From NCBI GenBank assembly GCA_020346285.1, contig CP070780.1, positions 1,113,021 through 1,177,020 of the forward strand: a DNA stretch of 64,000 nucleotides. Direction: 5' to 3'. Of this stretch, positions 22,550-44,505 are shown one piece after another; the stretch's first letter is position 1; each line of letters opens with the position of its first letter. The notes under the pieces are model-generated. The model saw nothing but the letters and a program-made list of their open reading frames with translations, ran no database searches and was not told where the DNA came from. The translations under genes and the position numbers were made by a program. This stretch comes from Candidatus Omnitrophota bacterium (lineage in GTDB: Bacteria; Omnitrophota; Gorgyraeia; JABMRN01; RBG-13-46-9).

Positions 22550-22590
22550 AAAGCAGAGATTTTTAATTGAAAAATTGGAGGGAAAAGTAT

Positions 22591-25762: not shown

Positions 25763-25779
25763 TAAAAAAATCGAGGGAC

Positions 25780-29072: not shown

Positions 29073-29759
29073 ATGCGAGAATTTAATGCGTTAAAGGGTT
29101 ATCCGCAACCGAAAGGGCCGCGTTATGTCGGAGCTGACATCAGAACAATTAAGAGCAGAATTATAGCTTCGTATCGCGATGAACGGTATTATGACGGAGA
29201 CCGCAACCACGGTTATGGAGGGTTTAAATATGACGGCCGATGGAAGAAAATAGCACAATCAATGTTTAAGGATTATGGGTTAACCGAGAACTCGGCCTTA
29301 CTCCAGATAGGGTGTGAAAAAGGGTTTCTCCTGCATGATTTTCATGAGCATTTCCCGAATATGAAAATTAGAGGAGCCGAAATGTCCGATTACGCTATTT
29401 CGCATTCCATGCCGTCGGTAAAAAAATGGATTGTAAAGATGGACAATTATACCAAGCTTCCCTTCGAAAGCGGAGAATTTGATTTTGTCATTGCTATAGG
29501 GGTAGTTTATGCCTTAACCTTAAGGGATGCTATATCTTGTCTTCGCGAAATTCAGAGAGTAGGAAAGGGCAAAAGCTTTATAACCCTGGGCGCTTATAAA
29601 GACGAACGGGGAGAAAAGCTTTTTAAGAGTTGGACGGTATTAGGTGCCACCATACTTCATGTAAATGAGTGGCCCGAGGTTTTAAAGGAAGCCCGTTACA
29701 CGGGCGATTATCACTTTATGACCGACGAATATCTAAATTTGGCAGAGAAAAACGGATGA
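29073..29759 (+). CDS. class I SAM-dependent methyltransferase
   Basis: Motif I is LLQIGCEKGFLLHDF. Motif II-like is EFDFVIAIGVVYAL. I prefer the ATG at 29073 after a GAGGGGG RBS. Confidence 0.7.
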   Translation: MREFNALKGYPQPKGPRYVGADIRTIKSRIIASYRDERYYDGDRNHGYGGFKYDGRWKKIAQSMFKDYGLTENSALLQIGCEKGFLLHDFHEHFPNMKIRGAEMSDYAISHSMPSVKKWIVKMDNYTKLPFESGEFDFVIAIGVVYALTLRDAISCLREIQRVGKGKSFITLGAYKDERGEKLFKSWTVLGATILHVNEWPEVLKEARYTGDYHFMTDEYLNLAEKNG

Positions 29760-30769
29760 AAAATCAGGATTTTTTAATAAAAATATTGGATAATAATAAA
29801 ATATTAAACCTAGAGTTTTATAAGAAATTATTTTTAATCAGAAGGAGTGAAGAGAAGATTATCGAGCTTTATCCTGAAAATGAAATGAGAATGCCAATGC
29901 ATATGTCTATGGGAGGAGAGGCAATAGCAGTTGGGGTTTGTCATGCTTTAGGAATAAAAGGCCAGGTTTTTGGAAGCTACAGATCCCATGCTATATATTT
30001 AGCTAAGACGCAAGATACGAATAATTTTTTTGCTGAGATATATGGAAAAACCACATCTTCATTAAAAGGAAAATGCGGCTCTATGCATTTGTGCGCACCT
30101 GATTTTGGGTTTATGGGAGCTTCAGCAATTGTAGCAAGTATAATTCCTGTAGCCTGTGGAACAGCTTTTGCAAATAAGAGAAAAAATAATGGTAAAATTG
30201 TTAGCGTATTTTTTGGAGATGGGGCCGTTGATGAGGGTAATTTTTGGGAGAGCTTGAATGTTGCCTCTCTTATGAAACTGCCGATTTTATTTGTCTGTGA
30301 AGATAACGCTCTTGCGGTTCATACTCCAAGGCACCAAAGGCAGGGTTATGATTCTATCGTTAGTATTGTCTCTAAGTTTAACTGTAATGTTCTTGAAGAG
30401 AGCACTACCGATACAGAAGTTATTTATAGAAAAACTTGCCAGGCTATTGAGTTAATTAGAACAACCCAGATGCCCTGTTTTTTGTATTTAAGATATTATA
30501 GGTACTTGGAGCATGTTGGTACTAAGGAAGATTTTGATGCCGGCTACCGCTCAAAAGAAGAATTTGAAAAATGGCATAAAAAAGACCCTGTAAATTTACA
30601 GAGGAAAAAGCTTTTAAGATTTGGGATAGAAGAAGAACAGATAAGAAAACTTGAAGTAGAGATAGAAGGTCGCATTGAGAACAGTATAAGGTTAGCCCAA
30701 AAAGCACCCTTCACTGAAATTAGCGAATTACACAGAGATGTCTTTTATGAAGAAAATAAGAAAGATTAG
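29756..30769 (+). CDS. thiamine-diphosphate-dependent dehydrogenase E1 component alpha-subunit homologue
   Basis: MHMSMGGEAIAVGVCHALGIKGQVFGSYRSHAIYLAK...; FFGDGAVDEGNFWESLNVASLMKLPILFVCEDNALAV is the TPP-binding GDG...N motif. The start overlaps the methyltransferase stop (ATGA). Confidence 0.8.
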   Translation: MKNQDFLIKILDNNKILNLEFYKKLFLIRRSEEKIIELYPENEMRMPMHMSMGGEAIAVGVCHALGIKGQVFGSYRSHAIYLAKTQDTNNFFAEIYGKTTSSLKGKCGSMHLCAPDFGFMGASAIVASIIPVACGTAFANKRKNNGKIVSVFFGDGAVDEGNFWESLNVASLMKLPILFVCEDNALAVHTPRHQRQGYDSIVSIVSKFNCNVLEESTTDTEVIYRKTCQAIELIRTTQMPCFLYLRYYRYLEHVGTKEDFDAGYRSKEEFEKWHKKDPVNLQRKKLLRFGIEEEQIRKLEVEIEGRIENSIRLAQKAPFTEISELHRDVFYEENKKD

Positions 30770-31799
30770 TTATTGTCAGGCATTGAATGAAGCAATGCGG
30801 CAGGAAATGGAAAGAGATCCAAATATATTTGTATATGGACTAGGTGTGCCTGACCATAAAAGAGTATTCACAACTACTGCGGGGTTGGTGGAGAAATTTG
30901 GTAAGGAAAGATGTTTTGATACCCCACTGTCTGAAGATACTATGACCGGGTTCGGATTGGGCGCGGCCATTAGCGGAATGAGGCCTATTCATATCCATAT
31001 GCGAGTTGATTTTCTTCTTCTAGCAGTAAATCAGCTTGCTAATATGGTTTCTAATTACAGATATGCAACAGCGGGGAAATTAAGAGTCCCTTTGCTAATA
31101 AGGGCTGTTGTGGGCAGGGGACGGGGACAATCTTTTCAGCATAGTAAGACTATGCATTCTATCTTTGCGCACATCCCTGGATTAAAAGTTGTTTTGCCCA
31201 CTACTCCCAGGGATGCCAAAGGGCTACTTATAGCAGCTATCAGGGATGAGAATCCAGTAATTTTTATAGAACATAGATGGTTATATTTTGCGGTTGACGA
31301 AGTTCCAGAACTACCATATACCATCCCTTTGGAAGAAGCTAATATTCTGCGTTCAGGCAGAGATGTTACAGTGGTGGCAACTTCGTGGATGAATGTAGAG
31401 GCCTTAAAAGCTGCACAGGTTCTTGAACGAAAGCACAAGATAAGCGTAGAAGTGATCGACGCCAGAATAGTAGCTCCCTTCAATGATAAGCTTATTGTTC
31501 ACTCCGTCAATAAGACAGGACATTGTATTGTGGCGGACAATGATTGGCTTGATTGCGGATTTAGTGCAGAAGTAGCTGCTCGAGTTTCAGAGAAGTGTTT
31601 CAGTCAATTAAAATCCCCTGTGCAGCGAATAGGATTTGCTCCCACTCCCTGCCCTTGCACAAAGTCTTTGGAGAATTGTTTTTATCCAAACGCAATTGAC
31701 ATTATAAAAACTATAGAATCAAAGTTAAACTTGGAAGAGGCAGATTTGTCTAATGAAGACTTTTATGGCTTTGAAAATAAGTTCAACGGTCCTTTTTAA
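30738..31799 (+). CDS. thiamine-diphosphate-dependent dehydrogenase E1 component beta-subunit homologue
   Basis: Transketolase-like Pyr domain (GFGLGAAISGMRPIHIHMRVDFLLLAVNQLANMVSNYRYATAGKLRVPLLIRAVVGRGRGQSFQHSKTMHSIFAHIPGLKVVLPTTPRDAKGLLIAAIRDENPVIFIEH) plus a C-terminal domain. Confidence 0.8.
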   Translation: MSFMKKIRKISYCQALNEAMRQEMERDPNIFVYGLGVPDHKRVFTTTAGLVEKFGKERCFDTPLSEDTMTGFGLGAAISGMRPIHIHMRVDFLLLAVNQLANMVSNYRYATAGKLRVPLLIRAVVGRGRGQSFQHSKTMHSIFAHIPGLKVVLPTTPRDAKGLLIAAIRDENPVIFIEHRWLYFAVDEVPELPYTIPLEEANILRSGRDVTVVATSWMNVEALKAAQVLERKHKISVEVIDARIVAPFNDKLIVHSVNKTGHCIVADNDWLDCGFSAEVAARVSEKCFSQLKSPVQRIGFAPTPCPCTKSLENCFYPNAIDIIKTIESKLNLEEADLSNEDFYGFENKFNGPF

Positions 31800-31832
31800 G
31801 TGGTAGTTGCGTTATAAAATTTTGAGGTGGTT

Positions 31833-32612
31833 ATGAATTTTGGTATTAGCGATAAAAGGGTTTTAGTCGTAGGAACCGGCAAGGGCATCGGGGGGGCTGT
31901 TGCAAGGGCTTTTGCGGCTGAAGGTTGCAGGGTGTCAATGGTAGCCCGTAATCCAGACACGCTAAAACAGCTTCTTGAGGAGATGGGTGGTCTTGAGAAA
32001 GGCCACAGGTTCCTGACGGCAGATTTGCTGGAAGCTGGTGCACCGACAAGAGTTGTAAAAGAGTTTTCGAGCGCGGATGGCCCATTTGATATAGTCGTCC
32101 ATAATGTAGGGGGCGCAATAACGCTTAAAGATCCTCTTGGTCCGGTTGAAGACTGGATGCGCGTATGGCGGTTTAATGTTGGCATCGCCATTGAGATGAA
32201 TGCCCTTTTGGTGCCACCCATGCGGAAACAAGGCTGGGGGCGGGTCATTCACATTTCGTCAATTTCCGCAGAGTTAGGAGAGCCGCGGCTGCATCCTTAT
32301 GGGGGTGCGCTTTCCTATGCGGCGGCAAAAGCATATCTCAACGTATATGTAAGGGGATTAGGCCGCGAAGTAGCAAAGGAAAATGTTATAGTTACTGCAT
32401 TGATGCCCGGACCGATTCTTTCCGAAGGAAAATACGTGGATAAGCTCCGTAAGACGAATCCTGAACTTATGAATAACTTCTTACGTCAACACTGCCCGAT
32501 CGGACGTTTCGGGATGCCTGAAGAGATTGCACCTTTCGCAGTCTTCATGGCCTCGGAGCAAGCCTCTTATGCCAGTGGTTCCATTGTACCGATCGACGGT
32601 GGAAGAATATGA
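31833..32612 (+). CDS. short-chain dehydrogenase/reductase (classical SDR)
   Basis: KRVLVVGTGKGIGGAVARAFAAEGCRVSMVARN is the TGxxxGxG motif. YGGALSYAAAKAY is the YxxxK motif. The C-terminus is YASGSIVPIDGG. Local GC is higher than in the flanks. I prefer the ATG at 31833 (GAGGTGG RBS). Confidence 0.85.
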   Translation: MNFGISDKRVLVVGTGKGIGGAVARAFAAEGCRVSMVARNPDTLKQLLEEMGGLEKGHRFLTADLLEAGAPTRVVKEFSSADGPFDIVVHNVGGAITLKDPLGPVEDWMRVWRFNVGIAIEMNALLVPPMRKQGWGRVIHISSISAELGEPRLHPYGGALSYAAAKAYLNVYVRGLGREVAKENVIVTALMPGPILSEGKYVDKLRKTNPELMNNFLRQHCPIGRFGMPEEIAPFAVFMASEQASYASGSIVPIDGGRI

Positions 32613-32630
32613 TAGTGTGGAAGAAAAAGC

Positions 32631-33848
32631 ATGGGAATATTGTCAAAAATCACTGATCTACTTTTAGGACAGCCGATGTTCAATCTTCTCCAGAAAGCTC
32701 AAAAAATGGAGATATCCGGAAGAAGAATCATTCACTATGAGATAGGCGATCCGAGCTTTGACTCTCCTCCCCATGCTATTGAAGCGGCAAAAGAAGCTCT
32801 CGACGCAAACTTAACGCATTATACAAGTTCCATGGGGCTTTTCGAATATAGAGAAGCGATTAGAGAATACACAAAGGCCAACTCTGGTTTTAAACCCTCC
32901 ATAGATCAGGTTCTGGCCTGCCCTGCTAATGCTGTGATTGATTTTGTTATACGCTGCACAGCTAATCCTGGCGAGGAGGTTATTTATCCCGACCCAGGTT
33001 TTCCTACTTATTATTCTGCTATTACTTATAATAAGGCGATACCAGTAGGTATTTTATTAAAGGAAGAGAATATGTTTCGGATGAGCCCTCGAGATGTCCA
33101 CGATAAAATAACCGATAAGACTAGATTAATTATCATTAACAGCCCCCAAAATCCTACAGGTGCTGTTTTGAAAGAAGAGGAGATTCTTGAATTTGCCAGA
33201 ATCGCGGAGGAACATGATATTTACCTCTTAAGCGATGAGGTCTATGCAAAGCTTACTTATGATAAAGCTCATTATTCGCCGAGCGTAAGAGATCAATGTA
33301 AGGCAAGAACCATTATTTTAAACAGTCTTTCGAAACAATATTCGATGGCGGGCTGGCGCTTGGGTTATGCTATCGGCCCTGAGAAACTAATAGAAAAAAT
33401 GGGATTACTTCTGCAAACAATAATCTCGTGTCTACCGGCCTTTACACAACTTGGAGGCAGGGCTGCGCTTCTGGGCAATCAAGAGTTTATGGATGCCAGG
33501 ATTGCCATGTTGAGAGAAAGGCGCGATATATTAACCGAAGGGCTTAATAAACTTCCCGGGGTCTCATGCGTTGTACCGGATGGGGCATTTTATGTTTTCG
33601 CCAATATAAGTAAAACTGGGATAACTTCAGAGGAATATTCAGAGAAACTTTTGCAAGAGACCGGTGTCTGTGTACTAGCCGGTAATTATTTTGGAAAAGG
33701 CGGAAGTGGATACATTAGATTATGTTATGCCAGTTCGCCGATCAGCCTTATTGAAGAAACGCTTGAGAAGATGAAAGAATTCCATGAAAAAATTGTTTGT
33801 AATTCTGGATTAGTTTGTTCTGGAGGGGAAAATGCAAAGACTTACTGA
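32631..33848 (+). CDS. class I/II (aspartate-aminotransferase-fold) PLP-dependent aminotransferase
   Basis: IIHYEIGDPSFDSPPHAIEAAKEALDANLTHYTSSMGLFEYREAI...; SLSKQYSMAGWRLGYAIGP is the Lys-containing SxSK..(A/G)..G.R.G motif. Confidence 0.8.
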   Translation: MGILSKITDLLLGQPMFNLLQKAQKMEISGRRIIHYEIGDPSFDSPPHAIEAAKEALDANLTHYTSSMGLFEYREAIREYTKANSGFKPSIDQVLACPANAVIDFVIRCTANPGEEVIYPDPGFPTYYSAITYNKAIPVGILLKEENMFRMSPRDVHDKITDKTRLIIINSPQNPTGAVLKEEEILEFARIAEEHDIYLLSDEVYAKLTYDKAHYSPSVRDQCKARTIILNSLSKQYSMAGWRLGYAIGPEKLIEKMGLLLQTIISCLPAFTQLGGRAALLGNQEFMDARIAMLRERRDILTEGLNKLPGVSCVVPDGAFYVFANISKTGITSEEYSEKLLQETGVCVLAGNYFGKGGSGYIRLCYASSPISLIEETLEKMKEFHEKIVCNSGLVCSGGENAKTY

Positions 33849-35520
33849 TTATATCGCTCAATTTCTTATCGGTCAAGGCGTTAGAGATATTTTTATGCTT
33901 ACGGGCTATGGTGCAATGTATCTCAACGATGCTATTGCCCTATCGGGTATTAACTATTATGCTTCTCGAAATGAAGCAGCAGCCCCTATGATGGCTGAGG
34001 CCTATGCTCGTGTGAAACAATCGTTGGGGGCAGTATGCGTAACAGCAGGCCCGGGAGCAACAAATGCGGTATCAGGCTTAGCGGAGGCTTGGGTTGATTC
34101 AGCTCCGATAATAGTATTTTCAGGACAAGTTACAAGGAGGCACACTACCCATAACGCCAATGTTCCAGGCCTTAGGACTTTTGGAACGGCTGAGATTAAT
34201 ATTGTACCGATTGTAAAAAACCTAACCAAATATGCCGCTGTCATCGACGAACCCACGTCGGTGCGTTATCATCTCGAAAAAGCCGTTTATTATGCTACCA
34301 CAGGTCGTCCCGGCCCGGTATGGCTGGATATTCCATTAGATGTCCAACAGGCATTAATTGATCCAAGCAGTTTAGATGGTTTTATACCGCCTAAAGAACG
34401 ATGGTTTAATACGAATCTGACCGCTGCTACTAATTCTGTTATTAAGTTGCTTTTACGCGCTAAACGCCCTGTCCTTGTATGTGGTCATGGTATTCGCCAG
34501 GGGGGTGCAATTTCTGAGTGGCGGAACTTAGTTGATTTGCTCAATATGCCAGTTATATTTTCACGCTTGGGCCTGGATTTGATGCCACATTCTCACCCGA
34601 ACGTATTTGGAATGGCGGGAATTAAGGGTTCACGTTACTGTAAGTTCCTCATGAATGAGGCGGACTTGGTGATTTCGTTAGGGTCTCGCCTTGCTGTACC
34701 CTTTGTAGGTCATGACTTAGAGGCTTTTGCGCCCGGCGCAAAGATAGTGATGGTAGATATTGATAAAGCTGAGTTAAGCAAGCCAGGCGTCCATATTGAT
34801 TTACCTATTCATGCGGACATAAAACCATTTACCCAGGAATTACTCAAGGCCATTGATAACGAAAAACTACCAGACTGGGGAGGGTGGATTGAGTCTTGTC
34901 GAGAACTCACTCGGAAGTGCCCCATATTATCAGCATCTCAAAAACGAAATCCAATCGACTTATACTATTTTATGTCACGGATTGATGCGCTTTCCCAAAA
35001 ACATCACATTCTGGTGACAGATGCCGGTTCCAATTATTATGTAGGAGGCCAGGTATGGCGATTCGAGAATGCTCGGCGTGAGATTACTTCATCTGCTTAT
35101 GCCGCCATGGGCTTGAGTATTCCACTTGCGATAGGTGCAAGCATCGCAGATAAAAAAAGCCAAGTCCTGGCTATTACAGGAGATGGTTCGTTAGAGTTAA
35201 ATATCCAAGAGCTTAAGACCCTATCCCATTATAATTTGAACATCAAACTGTTTGTTATTAATAACGGCGGCTATGTCTCAATGAGAAATTGGCAGGATAC
35301 TGTCTTTGAGGGGCGCCGTATCGACACGGAAGCAACGACCGGCGCCGGAACTTTAAATCTTAGGAAAGTAGCCGAGGCCTTCAATCTCGATTATTTAAAA
35401 ATTGAGAAACATGAAGAGATCGATGAAAAGTTGAAACAAGTGATGAGCAATGATTCTCCTATATTTGTAGAAGTAATTACTGATTATAACCAGAAAATAT
35501 TAGAGCCTTTCGATAGATAA
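33832..35520 (+). CDS. thiamine-diphosphate enzyme, acetolactate-synthase large-subunit-like (second copy)
   Basis: AAPMMAEAYARVKQSLGAVCVTAGPGATNAVSGLAEAWVDSAPIIVFSGQV; the C-terminal PP domain reads ITGDGSLELNIQELKT. It overlaps the upstream aminotransferase by 17 nt. Confidence 0.85.
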   Translation: MQRLTDYIAQFLIGQGVRDIFMLTGYGAMYLNDAIALSGINYYASRNEAAAPMMAEAYARVKQSLGAVCVTAGPGATNAVSGLAEAWVDSAPIIVFSGQVTRRHTTHNANVPGLRTFGTAEINIVPIVKNLTKYAAVIDEPTSVRYHLEKAVYYATTGRPGPVWLDIPLDVQQALIDPSSLDGFIPPKERWFNTNLTAATNSVIKLLLRAKRPVLVCGHGIRQGGAISEWRNLVDLLNMPVIFSRLGLDLMPHSHPNVFGMAGIKGSRYCKFLMNEADLVISLGSRLAVPFVGHDLEAFAPGAKIVMVDIDKAELSKPGVHIDLPIHADIKPFTQELLKAIDNEKLPDWGGWIESCRELTRKCPILSASQKRNPIDLYYFMSRIDALSQKHHILVTDAGSNYYVGGQVWRFENARREITSSAYAAMGLSIPLAIGASIADKKSQVLAITGDGSLELNIQELKTLSHYNLNIKLFVINNGGYVSMRNWQDTVFEGRRIDTEATTGAGTLNLRKVAEAFNLDYLKIEKHEEIDEKLKQVMSNDSPIFVEVITDYNQKILEPFDR

Positions 35521-35540
35521 CAAAATAGAGGAATTTCCCG

Positions 35541-36368
35541 ATGCAAGAAAAAGTGCAAATGCTAAAGAAAAAAGCAAGGTGGGTGCGAACCAAGGTTCTA
35601 AATACCATAGCCAGACTAAGAAAGGGTCATCTCGGAGGTACCTTATCCTGTACGGACCTTTTGGTGGCCTTATATTACGGGAAAATCATGAGATTCGATG
35701 CTGCTAATCCAAATTGGAGCGAAAGAGACAGATTTCTTATAGGGAAAGGGCATGCCCATCTTGCCTTATATTATATATGGACTGACCTCGGATTTTTTGA
35801 TGTTCGCAAATTAGAAGAATATGGAACCGACGGTAGCTCATTAGGTTTTCAACTCGATCGTAACATTCCGGGTTCAGAATATAATACAGGTTCATTAGGA
35901 CATGTGATTGGAATCGGAGCTGGAATGGCATTAGCCGCAAAGATGGATCGCAAGGCCTATAAGACCATTGTTCTTGTCGGTGATGGGGAATGTGATGAAG
36001 GTTCTATCTGGGAAGCGGTCATGTTTGCGAGCCGATATCGATTGAATAATTTAATGACCATTGTTGATAGAAATCAGGCAACAGTCATTGAAAATAGAGT
36101 GGAAGACGATGGTTCCGGGAGATTAGAGGAAAAGTTCAAAATGTGCGGTTGGGAGTCTATAACTATCAACGGGCACTCCTTTGAGCAGATACTGTCCGCT
36201 TTCACTGGATTGGAAAAATTCAATAGGCCCCTGGCGATAATTGCCGATACGGTGAAGGGTAAAGGGGCCTCTTTTTTGGAGCAAGGGGCTAAATGGCACC
36301 ATTTGGTTCCTTCTGCAGAAGAATTTGATAGGGTAATTAGGGAGTTTGAATTGGAGGCTGAAACGTGA
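35541..36368 (+). CDS. transketolase, N-terminal (TPP-binding) subunit of a split transketolase
   Basis: HLGGTLSCTDLLVALYY...; GSLGHVIGIGAGMALAAKMDRKAYKTIVLVGDGECDEGSIWEA is the GDG...E TPP motif. It is 275 aa. Confidence 0.85.
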   Translation: MQEKVQMLKKKARWVRTKVLNTIARLRKGHLGGTLSCTDLLVALYYGKIMRFDAANPNWSERDRFLIGKGHAHLALYYIWTDLGFFDVRKLEEYGTDGSSLGFQLDRNIPGSEYNTGSLGHVIGIGAGMALAAKMDRKAYKTIVLVGDGECDEGSIWEAVMFASRYRLNNLMTIVDRNQATVIENRVEDDGSGRLEEKFKMCGWESITINGHSFEQILSAFTGLEKFNRPLAIIADTVKGKGASFLEQGAKWHHLVPSAEEFDRVIREFELEAET

Positions 36369-37300
36369 AAAATGCAATTGATTTTAGAAATGCTTTTTTT
36401 GATAACTTATATGACATAGCTATAAAAAATAAGGAGGTTGTTTTCATAACATCTGATATGCCTGCAGAAAGCCTCGTCAAATACAATAAGGATTTCCCTG
36501 ACCGATTCATTAATAGCAGGGTTGCTGAACAGAACACGGTGAGTGTAGCAGCGGGGCTTGCACTAAGCGGAAAAAAAGTTTTCATTTATGGTATGTTACC
36601 TTTTGTAACAATGCGTTGTTATGAACAGATTAAGGTTGATATTTGTAGTATGAATTTACCCGTTACTCTTATAGGGCTGGGAGCAGGATTATCCTTTGAT
36701 GTGGATGGGCCAACCGCCCATGGAGTTATTGACATTGCTATTATGCGCTCACTACCTGAAATGACCATTCTCAATCCTTCCGACCCTATTACGGCATCTG
36801 CCTTTGCAGAAACTGCATACAGTAGTTGCACTCCCACCTATATTCGGCTGCACAAAGGTAGAACCCCATCTATTTATGATAATGCTACAGATTTCTCAGA
36901 TGGATTCTCTATACTTAAAAATGGCGATGATCTTTGTATTATTACAACAGGGGTCATGCTGCATACTGCTCTTCGCATAAGAGATGAACTAAAAAGGTAT
37001 TCTCTTGATGCGGGTGTTATTGATTTATATCAATTGAAACCAATTAAAGAAGACTTGTTCCTTAAAGCGTTAACTAACCATAAAAAAATAGTGACCATTG
37101 AAGAGCATTCACTTATTGGGGGACTTGGCAGTATCATCAGTGAAATCATAACCGACAATCAGCGGCCGATTTCACTCAAGCGCATTGCACTTAAAGATGA
37201 ACAGTGTTTTCATTATGGTAAGAGAGAGTGGCTACGCGAGGTGTATAAAGTTGATGCAGATAGTATTGTTAAGCAAATTATAGCATGGGAGAAGAAGTAG
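36365..37300 (+). CDS. transketolase, C-terminal (Pyr + C-terminal domain) subunit
   Basis: FITSDMPAESLVKYNKDFPDRFINSRVAEQNTVSVAAGLALSGKKVFIYGM... It is 311 aa and overlaps the N-terminal subunit by 4 nt. Confidence 0.85.
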   Translation: MKNAIDFRNAFFDNLYDIAIKNKEVVFITSDMPAESLVKYNKDFPDRFINSRVAEQNTVSVAAGLALSGKKVFIYGMLPFVTMRCYEQIKVDICSMNLPVTLIGLGAGLSFDVDGPTAHGVIDIAIMRSLPEMTILNPSDPITASAFAETAYSSCTPTYIRLHKGRTPSIYDNATDFSDGFSILKNGDDLCIITTGVMLHTALRIRDELKRYSLDAGVIDLYQLKPIKEDLFLKALTNHKKIVTIEEHSLIGGLGSIISEIITDNQRPISLKRIALKDEQCFHYGKREWLREVYKVDADSIVKQIIAWEKK

Positions 37301-37301
37301 C

Positions 37302-38372
37302 ATGGGCCTTGTATATGCAAAAATGAAAATATTCCATTTTAAAGACAAAGTAGATTCTCTGTCAATAACAAAAGATGAAATATTGCCTCCCATACAGATA
37401 AGAATCAAACCGACGAATGTCTGCAATCATAACTGTTCCTATTGCTCATACAAGATAGATAACGTACAGATCGGTAAGGACATAGTGGCGAAGGACCGAA
37501 TCCCCAGGGAAAAGATGATGGAAATAATGGATGATATTATTGACATGCAGGTTGAGTGCGTTACCTTTAGCGGGGGAGGGGAGCCGTTCTGCTATCCTTA
37601 TTTGCTTGAGGCCGTTAAGAGGTTGTCCAGTACGCCTGTCAAATTCGCGACCCTGACGAACGGCTCAAAATTAGACGGAGAACTGGCAGAGGTCTTTGCC
37701 CACAAGGCCACATGGCTTAGGGTTTCCATAGATGGGTGGGATGACGAAAGCTATTCTGCCTACAGGGGCGTACCCAAGGGGGAATTCACAAAGGTAATCA
37801 GAAACATAGAGAATTTCAAGAAATATAGAGGAAAATGTTATTTGGGAGCCTGTATAGTTATCGATAAGAAAAACGCCTCTCATGTGTATGAATTGATAGC
37901 GCGGTTAAAAGATAGCGGTATTGACAGCGTCAAGATTGCGCCGTCTATTCTGAGTAATAGCAGTACGGAAATCAATCTATATCACAAACCCATATTTGAA
38001 CAAGTTAAAAGAGAAATTGCTAAAGCATCAGATGAACTTTCAGAGGAAGTGTTTGAGATATTCGACTCATATCATAGCCAGCTCGAAGGCTTTGAAAAAG
38101 GATATACCTGGTGCCCATATCTTCAGATATTGCCTGTTATCGGCGCAGACCTTAATGTATATTCCTGCCACGACAAGGCATATAATCTCGATGAAGGGCT
38201 TATGGGTTCCATTAAAAATCGCCGATTCAAAGATTTTTGGCTTTCGGACAAGAATAAATTTTTTAAAATAGACCCCTCTCGCCATTGCAACCACCATTGT
38301 GTGGTAGATATGAAAAATAGACTTATCCTGGACTATTTGGATGCAGATAAAGGACATTTAGGGTTTGTTTAA
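37302..38372 (+). CDS. radical SAM protein with SPASM/twitch-like C-terminal Cys cluster
   Basis: IRIKPTNVCNHNCSYCSY is a Cx3Cx2C motif. The C-terminus reads C.YLQ....YSCHD...RHCNHHC. Confidence 0.75.
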   Translation: MGLVYAKMKIFHFKDKVDSLSITKDEILPPIQIRIKPTNVCNHNCSYCSYKIDNVQIGKDIVAKDRIPREKMMEIMDDIIDMQVECVTFSGGGEPFCYPYLLEAVKRLSSTPVKFATLTNGSKLDGELAEVFAHKATWLRVSIDGWDDESYSAYRGVPKGEFTKVIRNIENFKKYRGKCYLGACIVIDKKNASHVYELIARLKDSGIDSVKIAPSILSNSSTEINLYHKPIFEQVKREIAKASDELSEEVFEIFDSYHSQLEGFEKGYTWCPYLQILPVIGADLNVYSCHDKAYNLDEGLMGSIKNRRFKDFWLSDKNKFFKIDPSRHCNHHCVVDMKNRLILDYLDADKGHLGFV

Positions 38373-38375
38373 TCG

Positions 38376-40013
38376 ATGAAAAATAATATCAGAGTTCTTC
38401 TAATGACCTCTAAAAGCGATACCCGGGATTTCTATGTAGCCTCGGCGCCGCCACTGGGTTTGTATCGGTTGCAGCATTACATAGCCGGACGGGGAATTAA
38501 GTGTGATGTGTTGGATTTAGGCGTGCAGCGCGAATTAGAGGAAAAATATCTACGCATGGTTGAAGAAGGATTATACGATATCGTGGGCATGAGCGTTACG
38601 CACCGTAACATGATTCCGGAGCTCGAAACCATATGGAAGTTCCGTGTTGCCAGTGAAAAGAGTAAAAAAAGATGTCTATTTATAGCGGGAGGACAAGACG
38701 CGACACTTAACTACAAGCAGTGGCTAAATTCCGGAATTGACCTGATTTTATTAGGTTTTGCCGAAAAAAGTCTATACGAGCTTTGCCTACGGCTTTCAAA
38801 AGGGCAGCATATCGAAACAGGTAAAATGGTCGAAGGGATGGCCGGGTGCGCCGTTCGCAATAGTAATAACCAGATTATTTATCAGCCAAGCGAAATTCTT
38901 ACAGATTCAGAATTCAAGGAGTTTTCGTTTTCTCAGATTATGGAACTGGATATACCCTATGAAATTTACTGGAAAGATTTGGGCAAATTGGACACTGTTG
39001 CCAATTTTCATGAAAACAAATTTGTTGCAAAAACAGTCAGGCTTTATACAGCGAGCCATTGCCCCATGAATTGCGGTTACTGCAGTTCGCGCTCCTTTAT
39101 CCCCGAATCACAAAAGAGAAAGTCTCCGGTTTTTATGCTCTCGGCTTCCGAGGTTCATCAATTAATCGTGCATCACGTAAAAAAATACGGCGCCATGGGC
39201 TTTCTTTTCTGCGAAGACGATTTTATGATTGGGAGCCCGAAGGGAATACAGCGTGTAGTTGATGTATGCCGCCTAATTGCGAGGTCAAAGGAAGACGGCA
39301 CTATTCCAGAAGATACCCTTTTTAACTGTCAAGCGCGAATCGATGATTTTTTGATTAGGAAAGGCCCGAATAAAAAGGTTGTAAATTTGGAAGTTATGGA
39401 CGTTCTGAAGCGTGCGGGATTTCGTGGGTTCGGAATCGGCGTTGAGACATTTTCCGACAGATTGCTTAAGTGTAAGTCGGTTAACAAGTTTGCATACTCT
39501 TACCAGGACTCCCGTTTAGTGCTTGACAGTATGTTAGAAAAGGGACTAAACCCAACGATCAACCTCATATTGGCGATCCCTGAGTCCACGGTAGAAGATA
39601 TGGTTCACTCGATGGAGGTAGCCGTAGAGTATTTCGAGAAGGGATGTCAGATGGCGGTTAGTGCGTTAATGGATTCATTTCCAGGCTCGACGATTCACGG
39701 TACAAAGGATTATCCGGCAACGACGAAAGAATGGAAAAACCCTTATACCAAAGAGATTGTTTCTATCGATGATTACTTTATTCCTAAAAACGATAGGATA
39801 GCCAGTATTACGAGCCGGTTTAGAGAGGTATCCTCTGATGAGCTGGAGAAATTGAAAATTGATGCCTCATGGACGAATTCAGCCGTTCCTAAACCGATTA
39901 CCGGGCTATCTAATTTTATAGGCATTTCAAAATTGCTAGGGAAGCATGATCTGGCTAAGCGCTTCAGGGATGTAACCTACGAGGCATTATGCAAAGAGAC
40001 AATCTTTTCTTAA
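38376..40013 (+). CDS. B12-binding (class B) radical SAM protein
   Basis: The N-terminal domain has LFIAGGQDATLN (GG..T). The radical SAM motif is TASHCPMNCGYCSS. Confidence 0.8.
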   Translation: MKNNIRVLLMTSKSDTRDFYVASAPPLGLYRLQHYIAGRGIKCDVLDLGVQRELEEKYLRMVEEGLYDIVGMSVTHRNMIPELETIWKFRVASEKSKKRCLFIAGGQDATLNYKQWLNSGIDLILLGFAEKSLYELCLRLSKGQHIETGKMVEGMAGCAVRNSNNQIIYQPSEILTDSEFKEFSFSQIMELDIPYEIYWKDLGKLDTVANFHENKFVAKTVRLYTASHCPMNCGYCSSRSFIPESQKRKSPVFMLSASEVHQLIVHHVKKYGAMGFLFCEDDFMIGSPKGIQRVVDVCRLIARSKEDGTIPEDTLFNCQARIDDFLIRKGPNKKVVNLEVMDVLKRAGFRGFGIGVETFSDRLLKCKSVNKFAYSYQDSRLVLDSMLEKGLNPTINLILAIPESTVEDMVHSMEVAVEYFEKGCQMAVSALMDSFPGSTIHGTKDYPATTKEWKNPYTKEIVSIDDYFIPKNDRIASITSRFREVSSDELEKLKIDASWTNSAVPKPITGLSNFIGISKLLGKHDLAKRFRDVTYEALCKETIFS

Positions 40014-40028
40014 AAGGGGGGCTATTAT

Positions 40029-41243
40029 ATGAACAATGGTAAATTAGCTATCTATGGCGGGCCAAAGATAAGAAAAAAACCCTTGCCATATCGGAAGCTT
40101 TTTGACGAAGAGGAATTGGAAAACGTGAAGAGGGTTTTTAAGGACAGTTGGCGGGAGGGGGTTGATTTCGGCTATCAGGGTAAATACGAGAAACTGTATA
40201 CAGACAAATTTTGCGATTTTCAAGGCGGCGGATTCGCTGATGCGGTATCTTCAGGAACAGCAGCCGTCTATCTTGCGTTAAAGGCTTTCGATATTGAACC
40301 CGGAAACGATGTCATTGTCTCTCCTGTTACCAATCCCGGTAGTGTTACTCCTGCTGTAATCCAGGGCATGAACATCGTCATTGCGGATTCCGCGCCGGAT
40401 AGTTTTAACATCGGGCCGGATGAATTTGAAAAAGCGTTAACTTCCGATACCCGCGCCGCAATTTTAACCCATCTGGGCGGGCAACCTATTGATATAGAGC
40501 CGATAATAGAAATAGCAAAGTCAAGGGGCATCAAGGTAATCGAAGATTGCTCACAGGCTCACGGCGCGTTATACAAGGGAGAAAGAGTTGGGCGTTTTGG
40601 GGATATCGCTGCTTCTTCGACCATGTTTTCGAAAACCCTTGCCACCGGAGGATGCGGGGGCCTTGTCTATATGCAGAACGAAGATTACTATTGGTTAATC
40701 CGTTCCCTGGCCGACAGGGGTAAGCATTTTCGCCTTCCCGACTTTGATTTTAGGGATACCGGCCAATGCCTGTTCCCGGCCTTGAATTTTAATCTCGATG
40801 AGCTATCCTGCGCCATCGGCCTTTCGATTCTTTCCCGATTACAGAGCATTATAGATAAGCGCCTTGAAATAACAGCTAAGATAGATACTTCCCTTGAGGC
40901 GTCGTCAGTGGTATTTCCCTGCCGAAGCCGGGACGATTGCAAACCGTCCCCCTTCTTTCATACTGTTGGGGTTGCCGTTGACAAGCTGAAGGTATCAAAA
41001 AAGGAGTTCGCAAAAGCTGTCGCCGCGGAGGGCATTTGGATTAATCCTCACTATAGCCAACTTGTCTCCGAGTGGAAGTGGTTGCATAAATACGTGAAAA
41101 ATGGCTTGAAGACACCCAACGCCAGACGCTTCAGGGATAGGACATTTAATCTCCTATTTAATGAGAAGTTTTCAGATGGCGAAGTCGAAGATATAATTTC
41201 GAGCGTAGTTAAAGTTGAATCGTTTTTTAAAAAAGATCGATGA
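40029..41243 (+). CDS. DegT/DnrJ/EryC1/StrS-family PLP-dependent sugar aminotransferase
   Basis: GKLAIYGGPKIRKKPLP...; ADAVSSGTAAVYLALKAF; IEDCSQAHGALYKGERVGRFGDIAASSTMFSKTLATGGCGGLV. Confidence 0.8.
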   Translation: MNNGKLAIYGGPKIRKKPLPYRKLFDEEELENVKRVFKDSWREGVDFGYQGKYEKLYTDKFCDFQGGGFADAVSSGTAAVYLALKAFDIEPGNDVIVSPVTNPGSVTPAVIQGMNIVIADSAPDSFNIGPDEFEKALTSDTRAAILTHLGGQPIDIEPIIEIAKSRGIKVIEDCSQAHGALYKGERVGRFGDIAASSTMFSKTLATGGCGGLVYMQNEDYYWLIRSLADRGKHFRLPDFDFRDTGQCLFPALNFNLDELSCAIGLSILSRLQSIIDKRLEITAKIDTSLEASSVVFPCRSRDDCKPSPFFHTVGVAVDKLKVSKKEFAKAVAAEGIWINPHYSQLVSEWKWLHKYVKNGLKTPNARRFRDRTFNLLFNEKFSDGEVEDIISSVVKVESFFKKDR

Positions 41244-41264
41244 CAGAGAGCGAAGAAGTATTAG

Positions 41265-42374
41265 ATGATATCAGATAAAGATTTATATAGCCAGAATAAA
41301 TTGCTACAACATTTAGAGAGATTACTTATGTGGAAGAGGGAAGGATTCGCGCACCCTATTTTTATAGACCTTGATCTTACGAATAGATGCAACAATAGAT
41401 GCCCTTTATGCGTTACTTCTCAAAATAGAGATCAAACAACAATGCCTTTCGGGCTTGCGAAAGATGTTATTTCACAACTTAAAAGTATGAATGTAAAGGC
41501 CATTCTGTTAGTCGGAGGCGGTGACCCTACCTGTCACCCTAATCTGGGGGAGGTAATAAGATTCATAAAACGAAAAGGTTTAGAAGTCGCGATCAATACC
41601 AACGCATATAAGATATCAAAAGATACTATAAAGACTATAGTTCGCTGTTGCGCATGGGTAAGAATAAGTTTAGACGCTGGCACCCCGGCAATTTATAAAA
41701 AAACACACGCTATGAATAAAAAAGCATTTTATCAGGTTGTGGACAACATATCTAATTTAGTTGACGAAAAACGAAAGCGTAAACGTAATATAGTTCTCGG
41801 AGCTACGTATCTAATCGGCCCCCATACTATAGAGGGGATATATGATGCAGCGCGGTTATGCAAAAAAATAGGCCTTGATAAGTTAAGATACAGGTTGTTT
41901 GAGCCGGAGATTGACGGTACAGAAATCAGCCTATCCAAGGACGAAAGAAAAAAAGCCGCGCCTGTAAGGCCGTGGAGCTTCACAAAAAAAGAAAAAGAAA
42001 ACATGTTTAACGAGCTGAAGAGGTGTAAAGAATTTGAAGATGAATATTTTTCATTCTCCTATTCCGAAGATAGATTTGAAGCAGTAATAAAAGGAAAATC
42101 ACGTAGTTGTAAAAGGTGCCATATCACCCACTTTATTACGTCCATAACCCCTGACCTCAAAGTATACCCTTGTCCTTATCTAAAAAACATTGAAAAATAT
42201 TGTTTAGGAGATCTGACAAAAGAGAATTTTAAAGAAATATGGTTTTCTGATAAACGGAAGAAAACTTCTGAAAAAATAAATGTCGAAAGGTGTTTCCACT
42301 CTTGCAAATATGAAAAACAAAACGAATTATTGCACAATATAAAAAAAGCAATGTTTCATCCGAATTTTTTATAA
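41265..42374 (+). CDS. radical SAM protein with SPASM-like C-terminal Cys-rich domain
   Basis: IDLDLTNRCNNRCPLCV is the radical SAM motif. The C-terminus reads CKRCHITHF...YPCPY...YC...C.HSCKY. Confidence 0.75.
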   Translation: MISDKDLYSQNKLLQHLERLLMWKREGFAHPIFIDLDLTNRCNNRCPLCVTSQNRDQTTMPFGLAKDVISQLKSMNVKAILLVGGGDPTCHPNLGEVIRFIKRKGLEVAINTNAYKISKDTIKTIVRCCAWVRISLDAGTPAIYKKTHAMNKKAFYQVVDNISNLVDEKRKRKRNIVLGATYLIGPHTIEGIYDAARLCKKIGLDKLRYRLFEPEIDGTEISLSKDERKKAAPVRPWSFTKKEKENMFNELKRCKEFEDEYFSFSYSEDRFEAVIKGKSRSCKRCHITHFITSITPDLKVYPCPYLKNIEKYCLGDLTKENFKEIWFSDKRKKTSEKINVERCFHSCKYEKQNELLHNIKKAMFHPNFL

Positions 42375-42474: not shown

Positions 42475-43230
42475 ATGAAAGACAAAATGAGTGATTTTAG
42501 GAGCAGCAGCCCACAGGAGCTTGCTATCAGAAGAAAATTCTTGGAACATTATAAAAAAAGTCCCATTCCTGATGATCAGCTCTTTGTAAACCTCGGGCTT
42601 TTTCTGAACACCAAAAATTTATCTCGAATCTTATTTATGAATGATATATACAAACAAATTATTGATGTTCAAGGGATTATTGTTGAATTTGGTACAAGAT
42701 GGGGTCCAAACCTGTCACTTTTTGCTGCTTTGCGAGGAATTTATGAGCCATATAACATACAGAGAAAAATAGTTGGATTTGATACGTTTGAAGGATTTCC
42801 AGGCCTATCAGAAAAAGACAGCTCTAGTGATATGATGAAAATAGGTAATCTTTCCTGTTCAGAAGGATATGTTGATTATCTTACAAAGGTGATGGAATTC
42901 CAAGAAGCTGATAATCCTGTCTCACACATCAAGAAATTTGAGATAAGAAAGGGAGATGCAAACATTGAAGTGGTGAAATATCTTGAAGAAAACCCGGAAA
43001 CGATTATTGCTTTGGCTTTTTTTGATTTCGACATTTACGAACCGACTAAAAATTGTTTGCAAGCTATAAAACCCCACTTGGTAAAAGGGAGTTTATTGTG
43101 TTTTGATGAATTGAATGCCCATAGTGCCCCGGGAGAAACTATAGCATTGAAAGAGGTATACGGACTTAATAATATAAAGTTACGACGGCCCCGCTACACC
43201 ACGAGAGTATCGTACTTTATTATAGAATAA
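42475..43230 (+). CDS. TylF/MycF-family (macrocin-O-methyltransferase-like) SAM-dependent sugar O-methyltransferase
   Basis: QGIIVEFGTRWGPNLSLFAAL...KIVGFDTFEGFPG matches the TylF family core (G.(I/V)VE.G(V/T).(R/W)G.S......GRtvw.yDsFeGlP). Confidence 0.75.
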   Translation: MKDKMSDFRSSSPQELAIRRKFLEHYKKSPIPDDQLFVNLGLFLNTKNLSRILFMNDIYKQIIDVQGIIVEFGTRWGPNLSLFAALRGIYEPYNIQRKIVGFDTFEGFPGLSEKDSSSDMMKIGNLSCSEGYVDYLTKVMEFQEADNPVSHIKKFEIRKGDANIEVVKYLEENPETIIALAFFDFDIYEPTKNCLQAIKPHLVKGSLLCFDELNAHSAPGETIALKEVYGLNNIKLRRPRYTTRVSYFIIE

Positions 43231-43238: not shown

Positions 43239-43332
43239 TATAACCCTGGGCGCTTACAGGGACGAACGGAGAGAAAGGAAACGATTGTCACTTTATGACC
43301 GCCGAATATCTAAATTTGAAGGAGAAAAACAG
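43239..43332 (+). pseudogene. relic of a methyltransferase 3' end (homologous to the end of the gene at 29073-29759), internally deleted
   Basis: 43239-43278 matches 29579-29618, and 43288-43332 matches 29711-29755, both at high identity. About 90 nt of intervening sequence is missing and no upstream gene body is present. Confidence 0.6.
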
Positions 43333-43383
43333 ATGAAAAGCCGGGATTTTTTACGAAAAATATTGGCAATGTTGACCATTCCC
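43333..43383 (+). repeat. 51-nt direct repeat (right copy), part of the functional gene start
   Basis: ATGAAAAGCCGGGATTTTTTACGAAAAATATTGGCAATGTTGACCATTCCC is the partner of 42393-42443. A related start (ATGAAAAATCAGGATTTTTTAATAAAAATATTGG) occurs at 29756. Confidence 0.7.
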
Positions 43384-44505
43384 GCAGTACTTGTAATACG
43401 GATATTGCGGCCGTTCGTGCTAATCCGTTTTGGAAAACTCCTTAGCGATAGAATAGGTCATTTTGCCATCAATACAGAAGAATATCTGTGCGAGAAGGAT
43501 GCGGGCATGTACGGCCGGCGAATCTTTGATATTTTTTATACCGTTAAACCAATTTGCAATCAACAGTTGAAAAAGATGTGGAGCCGCATACTGCACATTT
43601 CCAAGATTGCGCATTTTTTTGATATTGCCAATAGATGCTTACCGGGATATGAGGACCATTCGGTTTCCTTGCTAGGGCTTATGGATGTTCATGGTCTCTT
43701 TGTGCGTACCGCGCCGCATCTTTCTTTTACCCCAAAAGAGGAACGTATGGGGCTTGATGGGCTCCGGAAGATGGGCATACCTGAAGGCGTTCCTTTTGTC
43801 TGTTTTCATGCACGCAATCAGGCTTACCTGGAAACCGTGTATCCGAAAGCGGATTGGCACAGTCACAGCCACCGTAATTCGGACATTTATAATTATATCC
43901 CGGCAGTAGAAAAATTAGTAAATAGGGGGTATTTTGCTATTAGGATGGGTGCTGTTGTAAAAAAGAAATTGAATAACAATAACCCAAGGATTATCGATTA
44001 TGCCGTAAATCACAGGACAGATTTTCTTGACATATACCTCTTGGCTAAATGCAAATTTCTTATTAATAACGAGGCAGGTATTCATGGCGTATCCGTGATT
44101 TTCAGGAGACCGGTGGTTGAGGCAAATATCGTCCACATTGACCCCCCAAATCTCATCAAAGGGGAAAATAGTTTATTTATCTTAAAAAAATTATGGTCGC
44201 GAAGAAAAGGTCGCTTTTTGACTTTTAAAGAAATACTCAACACCGGCATAGGAAAATTTTCTACAGCCCAACAATATGAAAAGTCCCAAATAGAGTTAAT
44301 AGAGAACACACCGGAAGAAATCAGCGCTGTTTCCATGGAGATGGATGAGCGATTGAAGAATACATGGCAGACGACCGAAAAAGATGAGCAGTTGCAGCAG
44401 CAATTTTGGGCAATACTTAAGCCAATCTGCCCTAATGAAAATGGAATAATTTTTCCACGACTTGGCGCAGAATTTTTGCGCCAGAATAAAGAATTGTTAA
44501 AGTAG
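43333..44505 (+). CDS. hypothetical protein (about 390 aa), possibly a glycosyl/sugar-modifying transferase; no recognisable motif
   Basis: The ORF has a consistent reading frame. I prefer the ATG at 43333 (AAGGAG RBS) over the caller's TTG at 43285. Function cannot be assigned from sequence alone. Confidence 0.4.
   Translation: MKSRDFLRKILAMLTIPAVLVIRILRPFVLIRFGKLLSDRIGHFAINTEEYLCEKDAGMYGRRIFDIFYTVKPICNQQLKKMWSRILHISKIAHFFDIANRCLPGYEDHSVSLLGLMDVHGLFVRTAPHLSFTPKEERMGLDGLRKMGIPEGVPFVCFHARNQAYLETVYPKADWHSHSHRNSDIYNYIPAVEKLVNRGYFAIRMGAVVKKKLNNNNPRIIDYAVNHRTDFLDIYLLAKCKFLINNEAGIHGVSVIFRRPVVEANIVHIDPPNLIKGENSLFILKKLWSRRKGRFLTFKEILNTGIGKFSTAQQYEKSQIELIENTPEEISAVSMEMDERLKNTWQTTEKDEQLQQQFWAILKPICPNENGIIFPRLGAEFLRQNKELLK

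Follow-up and report, generated by a model that had tools for sequence, protein, structure and literature searches.

A split transketolase of a non-canonical clade, inherited with a YerE-like lyase, in a glycan locus of an Omnitrophota bacterium

We analyzed a stretch of 64,000 nucleotides from a Candidatus Omnitrophota bacterium (positions 1,113,021 to 1,177,020 of contig CP070780.1, assembly GCA_020346285.1; termed as the window below), in which two overlapping open reading frames (ORFs), ORF A at 35541-36368 and ORF B at 36365-37300, encode the two halves of a split transketolase (TK) inside a glycan locus. The pair probably represents an accessory, glycan-tailoring enzyme that would form carbon-carbon bonds on a nucleotide-sugar carbonyl, rather than an enzyme of the pentose-phosphate pathway, because its cofactor site is intact, its substrate pocket was rebuilt in a manner conserved across a clade, and the clade is co-inherited with a ketone-accepting lyase in nucleotide-sugar pathways. 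The gene structure, family, clade membership, residue changes and linkage described below are direct observations.

ORF A starts with ATG and encodes 275 amino acid residues (aa), while ORF B starts with GTG and encodes 311 aa, both on the + strand. Pfam searches matched Transketolase_N to ORF A (1.7e-29), and Transket_pyr (1.2e-27) and Transketolase_C (1.6e-22) to ORF B, so that all three transketolase domains (PP, Pyr and C-terminal) were found across the two ORFs. NCBIfam NF004559 covered ORF A with its profile positions 12-281 (224.7 bits) and ORF B with positions 317-621 (195.5 bits), and neither ORF reached the equivalog cut-off of 488; TIGR00232 gave 117 bits for ORF A and 33.8 bits for ORF B, under the cut-off of 682. 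The two profiles were built for full-length chains, and even the summed half scores stay under the cut-offs, albeit the domain matches are far above chance. The best solved relatives were the N and C chains of the split transketolase of Carboxydothermus hydrogenoformans (6yak for ORF A, 4.5e-56; 6yaj for ORF B, 1.3e-43). At the junction of the two genes (gaaacGTGAaaa), the GTG start of ORF B shares 4 nt (GTGA, 36365-36368) with the TGA stop of ORF A, and GGAGG is located 7 nt 5' of this GTG. The overlap and the GGAGG together are a classic translational-coupling arrangement. The N and C genes are separate, adjacent and co-oriented, as is typical of a split gene, and the related loci are arranged alike.

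Altogether, we confirm that ORF A and ORF B comprise a real split transketolase, the N half of which binds thiamine diphosphate (ThDP) and the C half of which carries the Pyr and C domains. An earlier note on this DNA had read the pair as separate N-terminal (TPP) and C-terminal (Pyr) transketolase subunits overlapping by 4 nt, placed directly after the second of two genes that it regarded as acetolactate synthase (ALS)-like and before a radical SAM gene; the Pfam and NCBIfam matches, the GTGA junction and the gene coordinates agree with this description. The ALS-like gene in question stops 20 nt before ORF A. The protein deposited in GenBank as UCD54967.1, which is encoded on a 1,432,423-bp contig of a Candidatus Omnitrophota metagenome-assembled genome (MAG), matches ORF A at 100% identity from residue 7 onward, as the annotated start is 6 codons downstream. 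The start at 35541 is supported because the alignment with the Carboxydothermus N chain starts at residue 1. Two other identities were rejected. For DXS, TIGR00204 scored 50.3 bits (N subunit) and 168.3 bits (C subunit) against a cut-off of 465.95, and the gene is also split; for phosphoketolase or PDH-E1, the secondary Pfam matches of ORF A were weak only.

To map the active site, the window proteins were aligned to Escherichia coli TktA and the residue numbering was checked. In the N subunit, H26, H66, D155, N185 and H261 of the E. coli enzyme are kept as His30, His71, Asp148, Asn178 and His253, and in the C subunit R358, E411, F437 and D469 are kept as Arg8, Glu55, Phe80 and Asp114. All of the ligands of ThDP and the metal (with the GDG...N motif for the metal and the diphosphate), as well as the ThDP-activating Glu and the core catalytic residues, are thus intact, and the enzyme is predicted to bind ThDP and Mg. 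On the other hand, five positions were found to be changed, namely H100 (Gln104), S385 (Glu35), H461 (Gly106), H473 (Ala118) and R520 (Lys164). In transketolase, the phosphate of the substrate is in contact with R358, S385, H461 and R520, and the sugar hydroxyls form hydrogen bonds with H26, H100, H261, D469 and H473 (PMC11387542). Of the four phosphate ligands, only the equivalent of Arg358 remains in the window enzyme; among the hydroxyl ligands, H26, H261 and D469 are kept, while H100 and H473 are replaced, the former across the clade described below and the latter in a subclade. Neither set of ligands is that of a housekeeping transketolase. The E. coli variants H461S and R520V are known to have higher activity on non-phosphorylated aldehydes (PMC3657141).

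The changes at these positions characterize a group of split transketolases, which we term the Gln104 clade. At the mapped positions, canonical N subunits read HHHQHG and canonical C subunits RSEHDHQR; C. hydrogenoformans carries both, and human TK has the canonical N signature but a C signature that is off at two positions. The N signature of the clade is HHQHH[H/S], with GSLGH where the canonical enzymes have GSLGQ, and its C signatures are RFEGDHHK (38 loci), RDEGYGHK (12 loci) and R[H/Y]EGDA[Q/H]K (about 11 loci). The replacement of H100 by Gln and the changes at three of the four phosphate ligands (S385, H461 and R520) are clade-wide; the S385 position is Phe in most of the members. The C signature of the window enzyme, REEGDAHK, is of the Ala118 type, which is common to a subclade of about 13 loci, but this precise combination was seen in no other locus, and by overall identity the window enzyme is nearest to the main group despite its Ala118-type signature. 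In the neighbor-joining tree, 84 of the 86 Gln104 sequences grouped as a single clade free of other sequences. The identity of the window protein is ~54% with this clade, compared with ~40% with the canonical split transketolases. The latter are the normal housekeeping form in Omnitrophota, where they keep HHHQHG and share 70-90% identity among themselves.

The homologues of ORF A at 52-65% identity were found in metagenomes and in MAGs of Omnitrophota, Nealsonbacteria, Margulisiibacteriota, Phycisphaerales, Syntrophobacteraceae and Sterolibacterium. As a control set, we used 80 other split-TK loci among the matches listed in a scan of reference genomes, with identities to the window enzyme of 47% or lower. 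The canonical N signature was found in 47 of these 80 loci, including four Omnitrophota MAGs, and no member of the Gln104 clade was among the matches listed. The Gln104 clade is so far restricted to uncultured bacteria. In a library of 1.84 billion representatives, Gln104 was present in 16 of the best 150 clusters, and within these 150 the nearest neighbors of the Gln104 clusters were not canonical enzymes but another non-canonical class bearing HHHHH[Y/H]. This class also occurs in glycan loci of cultured bacteria. The N signature HHHHHY was found in two cultured strains, Pseudoalteromonas umbrosa B95 (L021; the L-numbers are labels of the loci compared here) and Sphingobium agri MAH-33 (L043), whose enzymes carry Gly in place of His461 and Lys in place of Arg520. 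The L021 enzyme is part of a glycan locus of the heptose type, where SIS, a GDP-mannose-dehydratase-like gene, a methyltransferase, a Zn-ADH and a gene for a SPASM radical SAM protein were also detected. Eight metagenome contigs (L112, L116, L123, L126, L127, L131, L141 and L150) bear two split-transketolase pairs within 10 kb, one of them a pair of the Gln104 clade. The second pair shares only 38-48% identity with the window enzyme, and a signature neither canonical nor of the Gln104 type was confirmed for it in all of the eight loci but L141.

The genes surrounding the Gln104 transketolases are conserved as well. Four independent contigs share a single order, namely a dehydratase/epimerase, E1alpha, E1beta, a class I/II aminotransferase, the YerE-like lyase, TK-N and TK-C, with L001 as the only one of the four that lacks the aminotransferase; the order from E1alpha to TK-C occurs in the MAGs of Omnitrophota, Syntrophobacteraceae and Sterolibacterium. 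On most of the four contigs, TK-C is followed by a short-chain dehydrogenase/reductase (SDR), epimerases, a cupin isomerase, a GHMP kinase and a nucleotidyltransferase, and in L004 and L006 the stop of the YerE-like gene overlaps the start of TK-N. Another 80 loci came from a scan of metagenomes with a fragment specific to the clade, and the window proteins were mapped onto them by tblastn. Among the 55 clade loci with enough upstream sequence, the YerE-like gene was immediately 5' of TK-N in 42, and a B12-radical-SAM gene took this position in 5 more; in L005, L124, L134, L137 and L150, a B12-radical-SAM gene lies between the YerE-like gene and TK-N. Among the control loci, no YerE-like gene was found upstream of TK-N in the 74 with enough upstream sequence or within 10 kb in any of the 80.

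The companions of the pair point to nucleotide-sugar metabolism. In the 35 clade loci of at least 12 kb, we detected epimerase-like (27), 4,6-dehydratase-like (20), SDR (18), TylF-like methyltransferase (16), E1beta (15), aminotransferase (14) and E1alpha (13) genes. The homologues of the window aminotransferase (52-68% identity) are directly 5' of the YerE-like gene in many clade loci, those of E1alpha (58-71%) were found in L001, L004, L005 and other cassette loci, those of E1beta (65-74%) in cassette loci, and those of the TylF-like methyltransferase (50-70%) usually one or two genes after TK-C. In the window, a block at 37302-42374 with radical SAM, B12-radical SAM, DegT and SPASM-radical SAM genes separates TK-C from the TylF-like gene (42475-43230), and looks like an insertion into the ancestral cassette. 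The genes for nucleoside diphosphate (NDP)-sugar dehydratase, epimerase, GHMP kinase and nucleotidyltransferase surround the cassette with no pentose-phosphate genes nearby, and the family searches of the window ORFs found no pentose-phosphate gene in the 64 kb either. In L122, L133 and L135, which are of the Ala118 type, the genes directly after TK-C encode NeuB and a CMP-synthetase. The split gene is thus accompanied by keto-sugar-generating neighbors in a sugar-tailoring cluster, the setting in which sugar-branching split transketolases have been proposed. We conclude that the Gln104 clade is inherited as a unit with a YerE/JanthE-like lyase, in NDP-sugar clusters of the 6-deoxyhexose/heptose or nonulosonate kind. 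Its patchy spread over unrelated phyla with kept synteny is typical of a mobile accessory cassette.

The lyase next to the transketolase and a second one further upstream are the genes that the earlier note had called ALS-like. For the cassette lyase, the best match in the Protein Data Bank (PDB) was 8rph with 339.8 bits, compared with ~235 bits for true acetolactate synthases; the first lyase scored 347.6 bits with 8rph and 312.2 bits with 5ahk, and the true acetolactate synthases ranged over ~235-272 bits for both lyases. As 8rph is JanthE, a YerE-like ketone-accepting lyase (PMC12188165), the earlier description holds insofar as both are ThDP enzymes resembling ALS, but the two proteins are predicted to be YerE/JanthE-like ketone-accepting lyases and not acetolactate synthases. 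The first lyase shares an identity of only 32-35% with the lyases found in the cassettes of other loci, and lies outside the conserved cassette. The E1beta protein scored 295.5 bits with the NCBIfam model of PDH E1 beta, below the cut-off of 321, and no lipoyl/E2 or E3 family matched any window ORF of at least 150 aa. Three ThDP superfamilies have been associated with the branching of keto sugars, namely YerE-like enzymes (sugars of lipopolysaccharide, LPS), the E2-less E1alpha/beta enzymes termed alphaKADH2 (antibiotic sugars) and, by proposal, split-gene transketolases (PMC12247030). Branching by a split transketolase was proposed only for miharamycin, amipurimycin and 13 predicted Streptomyces sequences, none of which has been characterized in vitro (PMC12247030). 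The YerE-like, E1alpha/beta and split transketolase types occur together in the window as four enzymes, and the Pfam and PDB matches bear out the earlier statement that the locus encodes three different ThDP-dependent systems.

We infer the donor, the acceptor, the regiochemistry and the outcome of the reaction, a branch or a chain extension, as follows. The ThDP ylide would take a two-carbon ketol from beta-hydroxypyruvate, another 2-oxo acid or a ketose. Beta-hydroxypyruvate is a recognized transketolase donor that renders the reaction irreversible (PMC12247030, PMC3657141), and the adjacent amino-acid-type aminotransferase, a candidate supplier of 2-oxo acids, could provide it from serine. 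The ketol would then be added to a nucleotide-linked sugar at a carbonyl, in the simplest case the 4-keto group that a 4,6-dehydratase produces, to yield a C-branched sugar with a tertiary alcohol. The SDR, a candidate reductase of the branch ketone, may reduce the branch, which methyltransferase or radical SAM enzymes may modify further, and the YerE-like and E1 enzymes may install further acyl branches on the same or a neighboring sugar. The window carries nonulosonate genes and, therefore, an action on a nonulosonate precursor is possible. More tentatively, the Gln104 split transketolases could be the first natural ones to use a nucleotide-activated keto sugar as the acceptor and could, with the YerE-like lyase and in many cases an E2-less E1 as partners, produce surface sugars of uncultured bacteria such as Omnitrophota that are multiply C-branched or of a higher carbon number; we hold this to be possible rather than probable. 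Of the role put forward in the earlier note, a dedicated sugar function within the glycan locus accords with the clade, the pocket, the linkage to the lyase and the lack of pentose-phosphate genes nearby, while the extension of an aldose by glycolaldehyde found no support.

Several points weigh against a glycan-tailoring enzyme acting on a nucleotide-sugar carbonyl. There is as yet no demonstration that a transketolase accepts a ketone or a nucleotide sugar, and the precedent from Streptomyces is itself a proposal (PMC12247030). The substrate of every member of the Gln104 clade is assigned from sequence and gene context, and most of the neighbors in the metagenome loci were assigned by tblastn to the window proteins, not by independent annotation. 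Arg8 (the R358 equivalent) and the basic Lys164 remain in the window enzyme and may still bind an anionic group such as a phosphate, a diphosphate or a carboxylate. Both of the ligands of the donor C1-OH (H100 and H473) are replaced and, therefore, a unit other than the classical glycolaldehyde ketol may be transferred. Finally, a second transketolase in this genome has not been demonstrated, a point in favor of a housekeeping role. Such a role, as an ordinary transketolase (sole or extra copy) giving sugar phosphates, for instance sedoheptulose-7-phosphate for heptose, would fit the split form that is normal for the housekeeping enzyme of Omnitrophota and those related loci with GDP-heptose-type genes (SIS, GHMP kinase, HAD and nucleotidyltransferase), which start from sedoheptulose-7-phosphate. 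We nevertheless regard it as very unlikely, since His100 and three of the four phosphate ligands, all kept by the canonical Omnitrophota enzymes, are replaced clade-wide, the identity to canonical enzymes is low, the patchy distribution with conserved synteny is that of an accessory cassette, and the pair is linked to a YerE-like lyase and not to SIS/GmhA, which the family searches found to be absent from the window. The supply of sedoheptulose-7-phosphate was rejected on the same absence. It is least credible of all that the pair is a decaying or non-catalytic copy, such as a scaffold or a pseudo-enzyme. The window enzyme alone joins Gln104 with Glu35 and Ala118, as a degenerating copy might, but both ORFs are full length with the cofactor ligands, the activating Glu and the translational coupling kept, and the occurrence of Ala118 in about 13 loci and the clade-wide conservation of the other changes indicate selection.

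Two further alternatives assign the pair to the glycan pathway without a branch on a nucleotide sugar. In one of them, which appears unlikely, the transketolase, the lyase, the E1 enzyme and the aminotransferase build a small acyloin, deoxy-ketose or hydroxy-keto acid and the nucleotide sugar is never touched; the product would be a 2-oxo acid donor for the lyase or an N-acyl group, attached to the sugar later. No carrier protein, CoA ligase or acyltransferase is conserved with the pair in the tblastn-mapped clade loci, and its constant companions are NDP-sugar dehydratase, epimerase and reductase genes, although the aminotransferase is of the amino-acid type (class I/II) and not of the sugar type (DegT), and the C subunit scores with the DXS profile (168 bits) close to its TK score (195 bits). 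Furthermore, the YerE-like enzymes of the ErwE type need functionalized C4-C6 2-oxo acid donors of unknown origin (PMC12247030), and AniP, a member of the TK family devoid of a phosphate site, handles 2-oxo acids and small aldehydes (PMC11387542). The other alternative is the chain extension of the earlier note, in which a C2 ketol is placed on the aldehyde of a free or nucleotide-released aldose, such as a 2,4-diamino-2,4,6-trideoxyhexose feeding NeuB, to give a longer ketose or a higher-carbon ulosonic acid. Aldehydes are the natural acceptors of transketolase, NeuB and a CMP-synthetase come directly after TK-C in the three loci named above of the Ala118 subclade, which includes the window C subunit as judged from its signature, and the window has two NeuB genes together with a 2-epimerase-type gene of the hydrolysing kind, by which a free aldose would be released. 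However, a ketol at C1 would abolish the aldehyde that NeuB needs, NeuB is absent within 10 kb in most of the clade loci, which resemble GDP-heptose or 6-deoxyhexose pathways, and the conserved partner is YerE-like, the characterized members of which attack ring ketones (PMC12247030). We thus consider chain extension unlikely as well, and retain the tailoring of a nucleotide-sugar carbonyl as the probable role.

The locus around the pair is large. From ~5.7 kb to the end of the window, ~55 genes on the + strand follow one another nearly gaplessly, and the glycan locus spans more than 55 kb. It comprises two NeuB-type synthases, two CMP-sugar synthetases, a UDP-GlcNAc 2-epimerase-type enzyme, a CBS-nucleotidyltransferase, several DegT aminotransferases, many SDR-type dehydratases, epimerases and reductases, glycosyltransferases, methyltransferases, two sulfotransferases, an ABC exporter, a fusion of a pyruvate-kinase barrel with ATP-sulfurylase, and ten radical SAM proteins, five of which are B12-binding. 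In a scan of 28-44.6 kb, promoter and terminator sites were no more frequent than in shuffled sequence, and operon boundaries around the pair are unsupported. The features of the cassette and its surroundings are listed in Table 1.

Table 1. Coordinates of the split transketolase genes and the neighboring features in the window
Position	Strand	Feature	Basis or remark
25684-27519	+	Further YerE/JanthE-like ThDP lyase (the "first ALS-like gene" of the earlier note)	Best PDB match 8rph
29669-30769	+	E1 alpha, 2-oxo acid dehydrogenase-type ThDP enzyme, no E2/E3 partner in the window	Pfam E1_dh 3.9e-48
30738-31799	+	E1 beta	Transket_pyr 2.4e-32, Transketolase_C 3.8e-30
31827-32612	+	SDR	Pfam adh_short_C2 5.7e-36
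32631-33848	+	Class I/II (aspartate-type) aminotransferase	Pfam Aminotran_1_2 2.2e-64
33832-35520	+	YerE/JanthE-like ThDP lyase (the "second ALS-like gene" of the earlier note)	Pfam TPP_enzyme_N/M/C
35541-36368	+	Split transketolase, N-terminal (PP, ThDP diphosphate-binding) subunit, Gln104 clade	Transketolase_N, 6yak
36365-37300	+	Split transketolase, C-terminal (Pyr + C domain) subunit	Transket_pyr, Transketolase_C, 6yaj
37302-38372	+	Radical SAM gene	Pfam Radical_SAM 1e-20; starts 2 nt after the end of ORF B
38376-40013	+	B12-binding radical SAM gene	Radical_SAM 7.8e-12, B12-binding 7.1e-7
42475-43230	+	Weak TylF-like methyltransferase, 5 kb downstream of the pair	TylF 3.1e-4, Methyltransf_24 9.6e-4, both below cut-off

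Two of the ORFs in Table 1 are given at their longest extent. That of E1 alpha (GTG at 29669) overlaps the preceding gene by 91 nt and matches Pfam from residue 53, and that of the first YerE-like gene (TTG at 25684) overlaps the preceding gene by 79 nt and matches from residue 33; the true starts of both genes are probably further downstream. The G+C content is 0.436-0.441 over the aminotransferase, lyase and transketolase genes (32001-36000), 0.35-0.41 over most of the locus and 0.34 at its 3' end, a pattern consistent with a mosaic locus acquired in modules. The fusion at 23546-25762 (+) encodes 738 aa with a pyruvate-kinase barrel (1e-73), PUA_2 and ATP-sulfurylase domains, and sits between one sulfotransferase (22567-23562) and the first YerE-like gene, while the other sulfotransferase is at 61256-62494; the sulfotransferases and the ATP-sulfurylase fusion suggest a sulfated glycan. 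The ten radical SAM genes (1603-3039 on the - strand, 12214-13275, 15015-15989, 21161-22549, 37302-38372, 38376-40013, 41265-42374, 46280-47272, 49656-51158 and 54952-56397), four of whose products carry SPASM domains, make an unusually high density for one glycan locus, which suggests extensive C-methylation or other radical editing of sugars. NeuB is encoded at 10366-11241 and 59058-60062 and CTP_transf_3 at 9014-9655 and 47272-48018, and the nonulosonate context includes a PtmE-like CBS-nucleotidyltransferase (18195-19271), a 4,6-dehydratase (16006-17004), a PIG-L deacetylase and a WbqC-like protein; two separate nonulosonate pathways seem to be encoded. Four ORFs, at 13276-14973 (565 aa), 19360-21150 (596 aa), 43285-44505 (406 aa) and 51158-53128 (656 aa), had no Pfam match even at E = 0.01. 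The homologues of the protein starting at 43285 (26-36% identity) were found beside the transketolase in several loci of the Ala118 subclade, including L087, L089, L119 and L144.

If the proposed function is correct, the three enzyme types would form a ThDP toolkit for editing the carbon skeleton of cell-surface sugars with no described product, and such editing would join the known routes of surface-glycan diversification. New branched or extended sugars would then be predicted in lineages known from metagenomes only, possibly including branched nonulosonic acids; the products of the window and of L122, L133 and L135 in particular could include a C-branched nonulosonic acid. For transketolase chemistry on ketones or nucleotide sugars, the clade provides dozens of natural candidates, which have a lyase as their fixed partner and a defined signature in the active site, and the L021 and L043 strains would be tractable models for glycan-associated transketolases. 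The combination of Gln104, Gly106 and Lys164 separates the clade from the housekeeping split transketolases that share its database name, and the reconstructions of small-genome MAGs could wrongly credit the clade enzymes with a pentose-phosphate step that they may not perform.

Our literature search found no paper linking transketolases with LPS-type or nonulosonate loci and no published cluster or cassette combining all three ThDP branching types. The Gln104 clade, its signature and its conserved YerE-like partner appear to be undescribed, while split transketolases in sugar clusters have been proposed before, only for Streptomyces antibiotics (PMC12247030). The window enzyme shares the two-gene architecture, the domain split and the identical cofactor-binding residues with the C. 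hydrogenoformans enzyme (6YAK/6YAJ), but has Gln, Glu, Gly, Ala and Lys where the latter has His100, Ser385, His461, His473 and Arg520, and sits in a glycan cassette. The engineered E. coli TktA variants H461S and R520V (PMC3657141) concern the same two phosphate ligands that are naturally Gly and Lys in the clade, albeit these are laboratory variants of a housekeeping enzyme in which His100 and Ser385 are retained. AniP/siAniP of anisomycin biosynthesis (PMC11387542) is likewise a TK-family enzyme, incorporating a 2-oxo acid as a non-canonical donor, that lost the phosphate-binding residues and has an aminotransferase in its pathway; in contrast to the window enzyme, AniP is a single DXS-like chain of 603 aa that uses an aromatic 2-oxo acid in a secondary-metabolite pathway and lies in no glycan locus.

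The systems closest in proposed chemistry are those that branch keto sugars. YerE, ErwE and JanthE, and the E2-less E1alpha/beta enzymes (alphaKADH2, e.g., KbDH), are ThDP enzymes that form branched sugars through the addition of an acyl anion to a keto sugar, and homologues of both types are the conserved neighbors of the Gln104 transketolases; they differ from transketolase in belonging to other ThDP superfamilies and in using 2-oxo acid donors by decarboxylation. The split transketolases of miharamycin, amipurimycin and the 13 Streptomyces sequences, for which the transfer of a hydroxyacetyl unit to a keto sugar was proposed (PMC12247030), resemble the window pair in gene organization and setting, as split genes in a sugar-tailoring cluster. 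In contrast to those enzymes of antibiotic clusters, the members of the Gln104 clade come from Gram-negative and candidate-phylum bacteria that are uncultured, and their genes are coupled to that of a YerE-like lyase in loci for cell-surface glycans.

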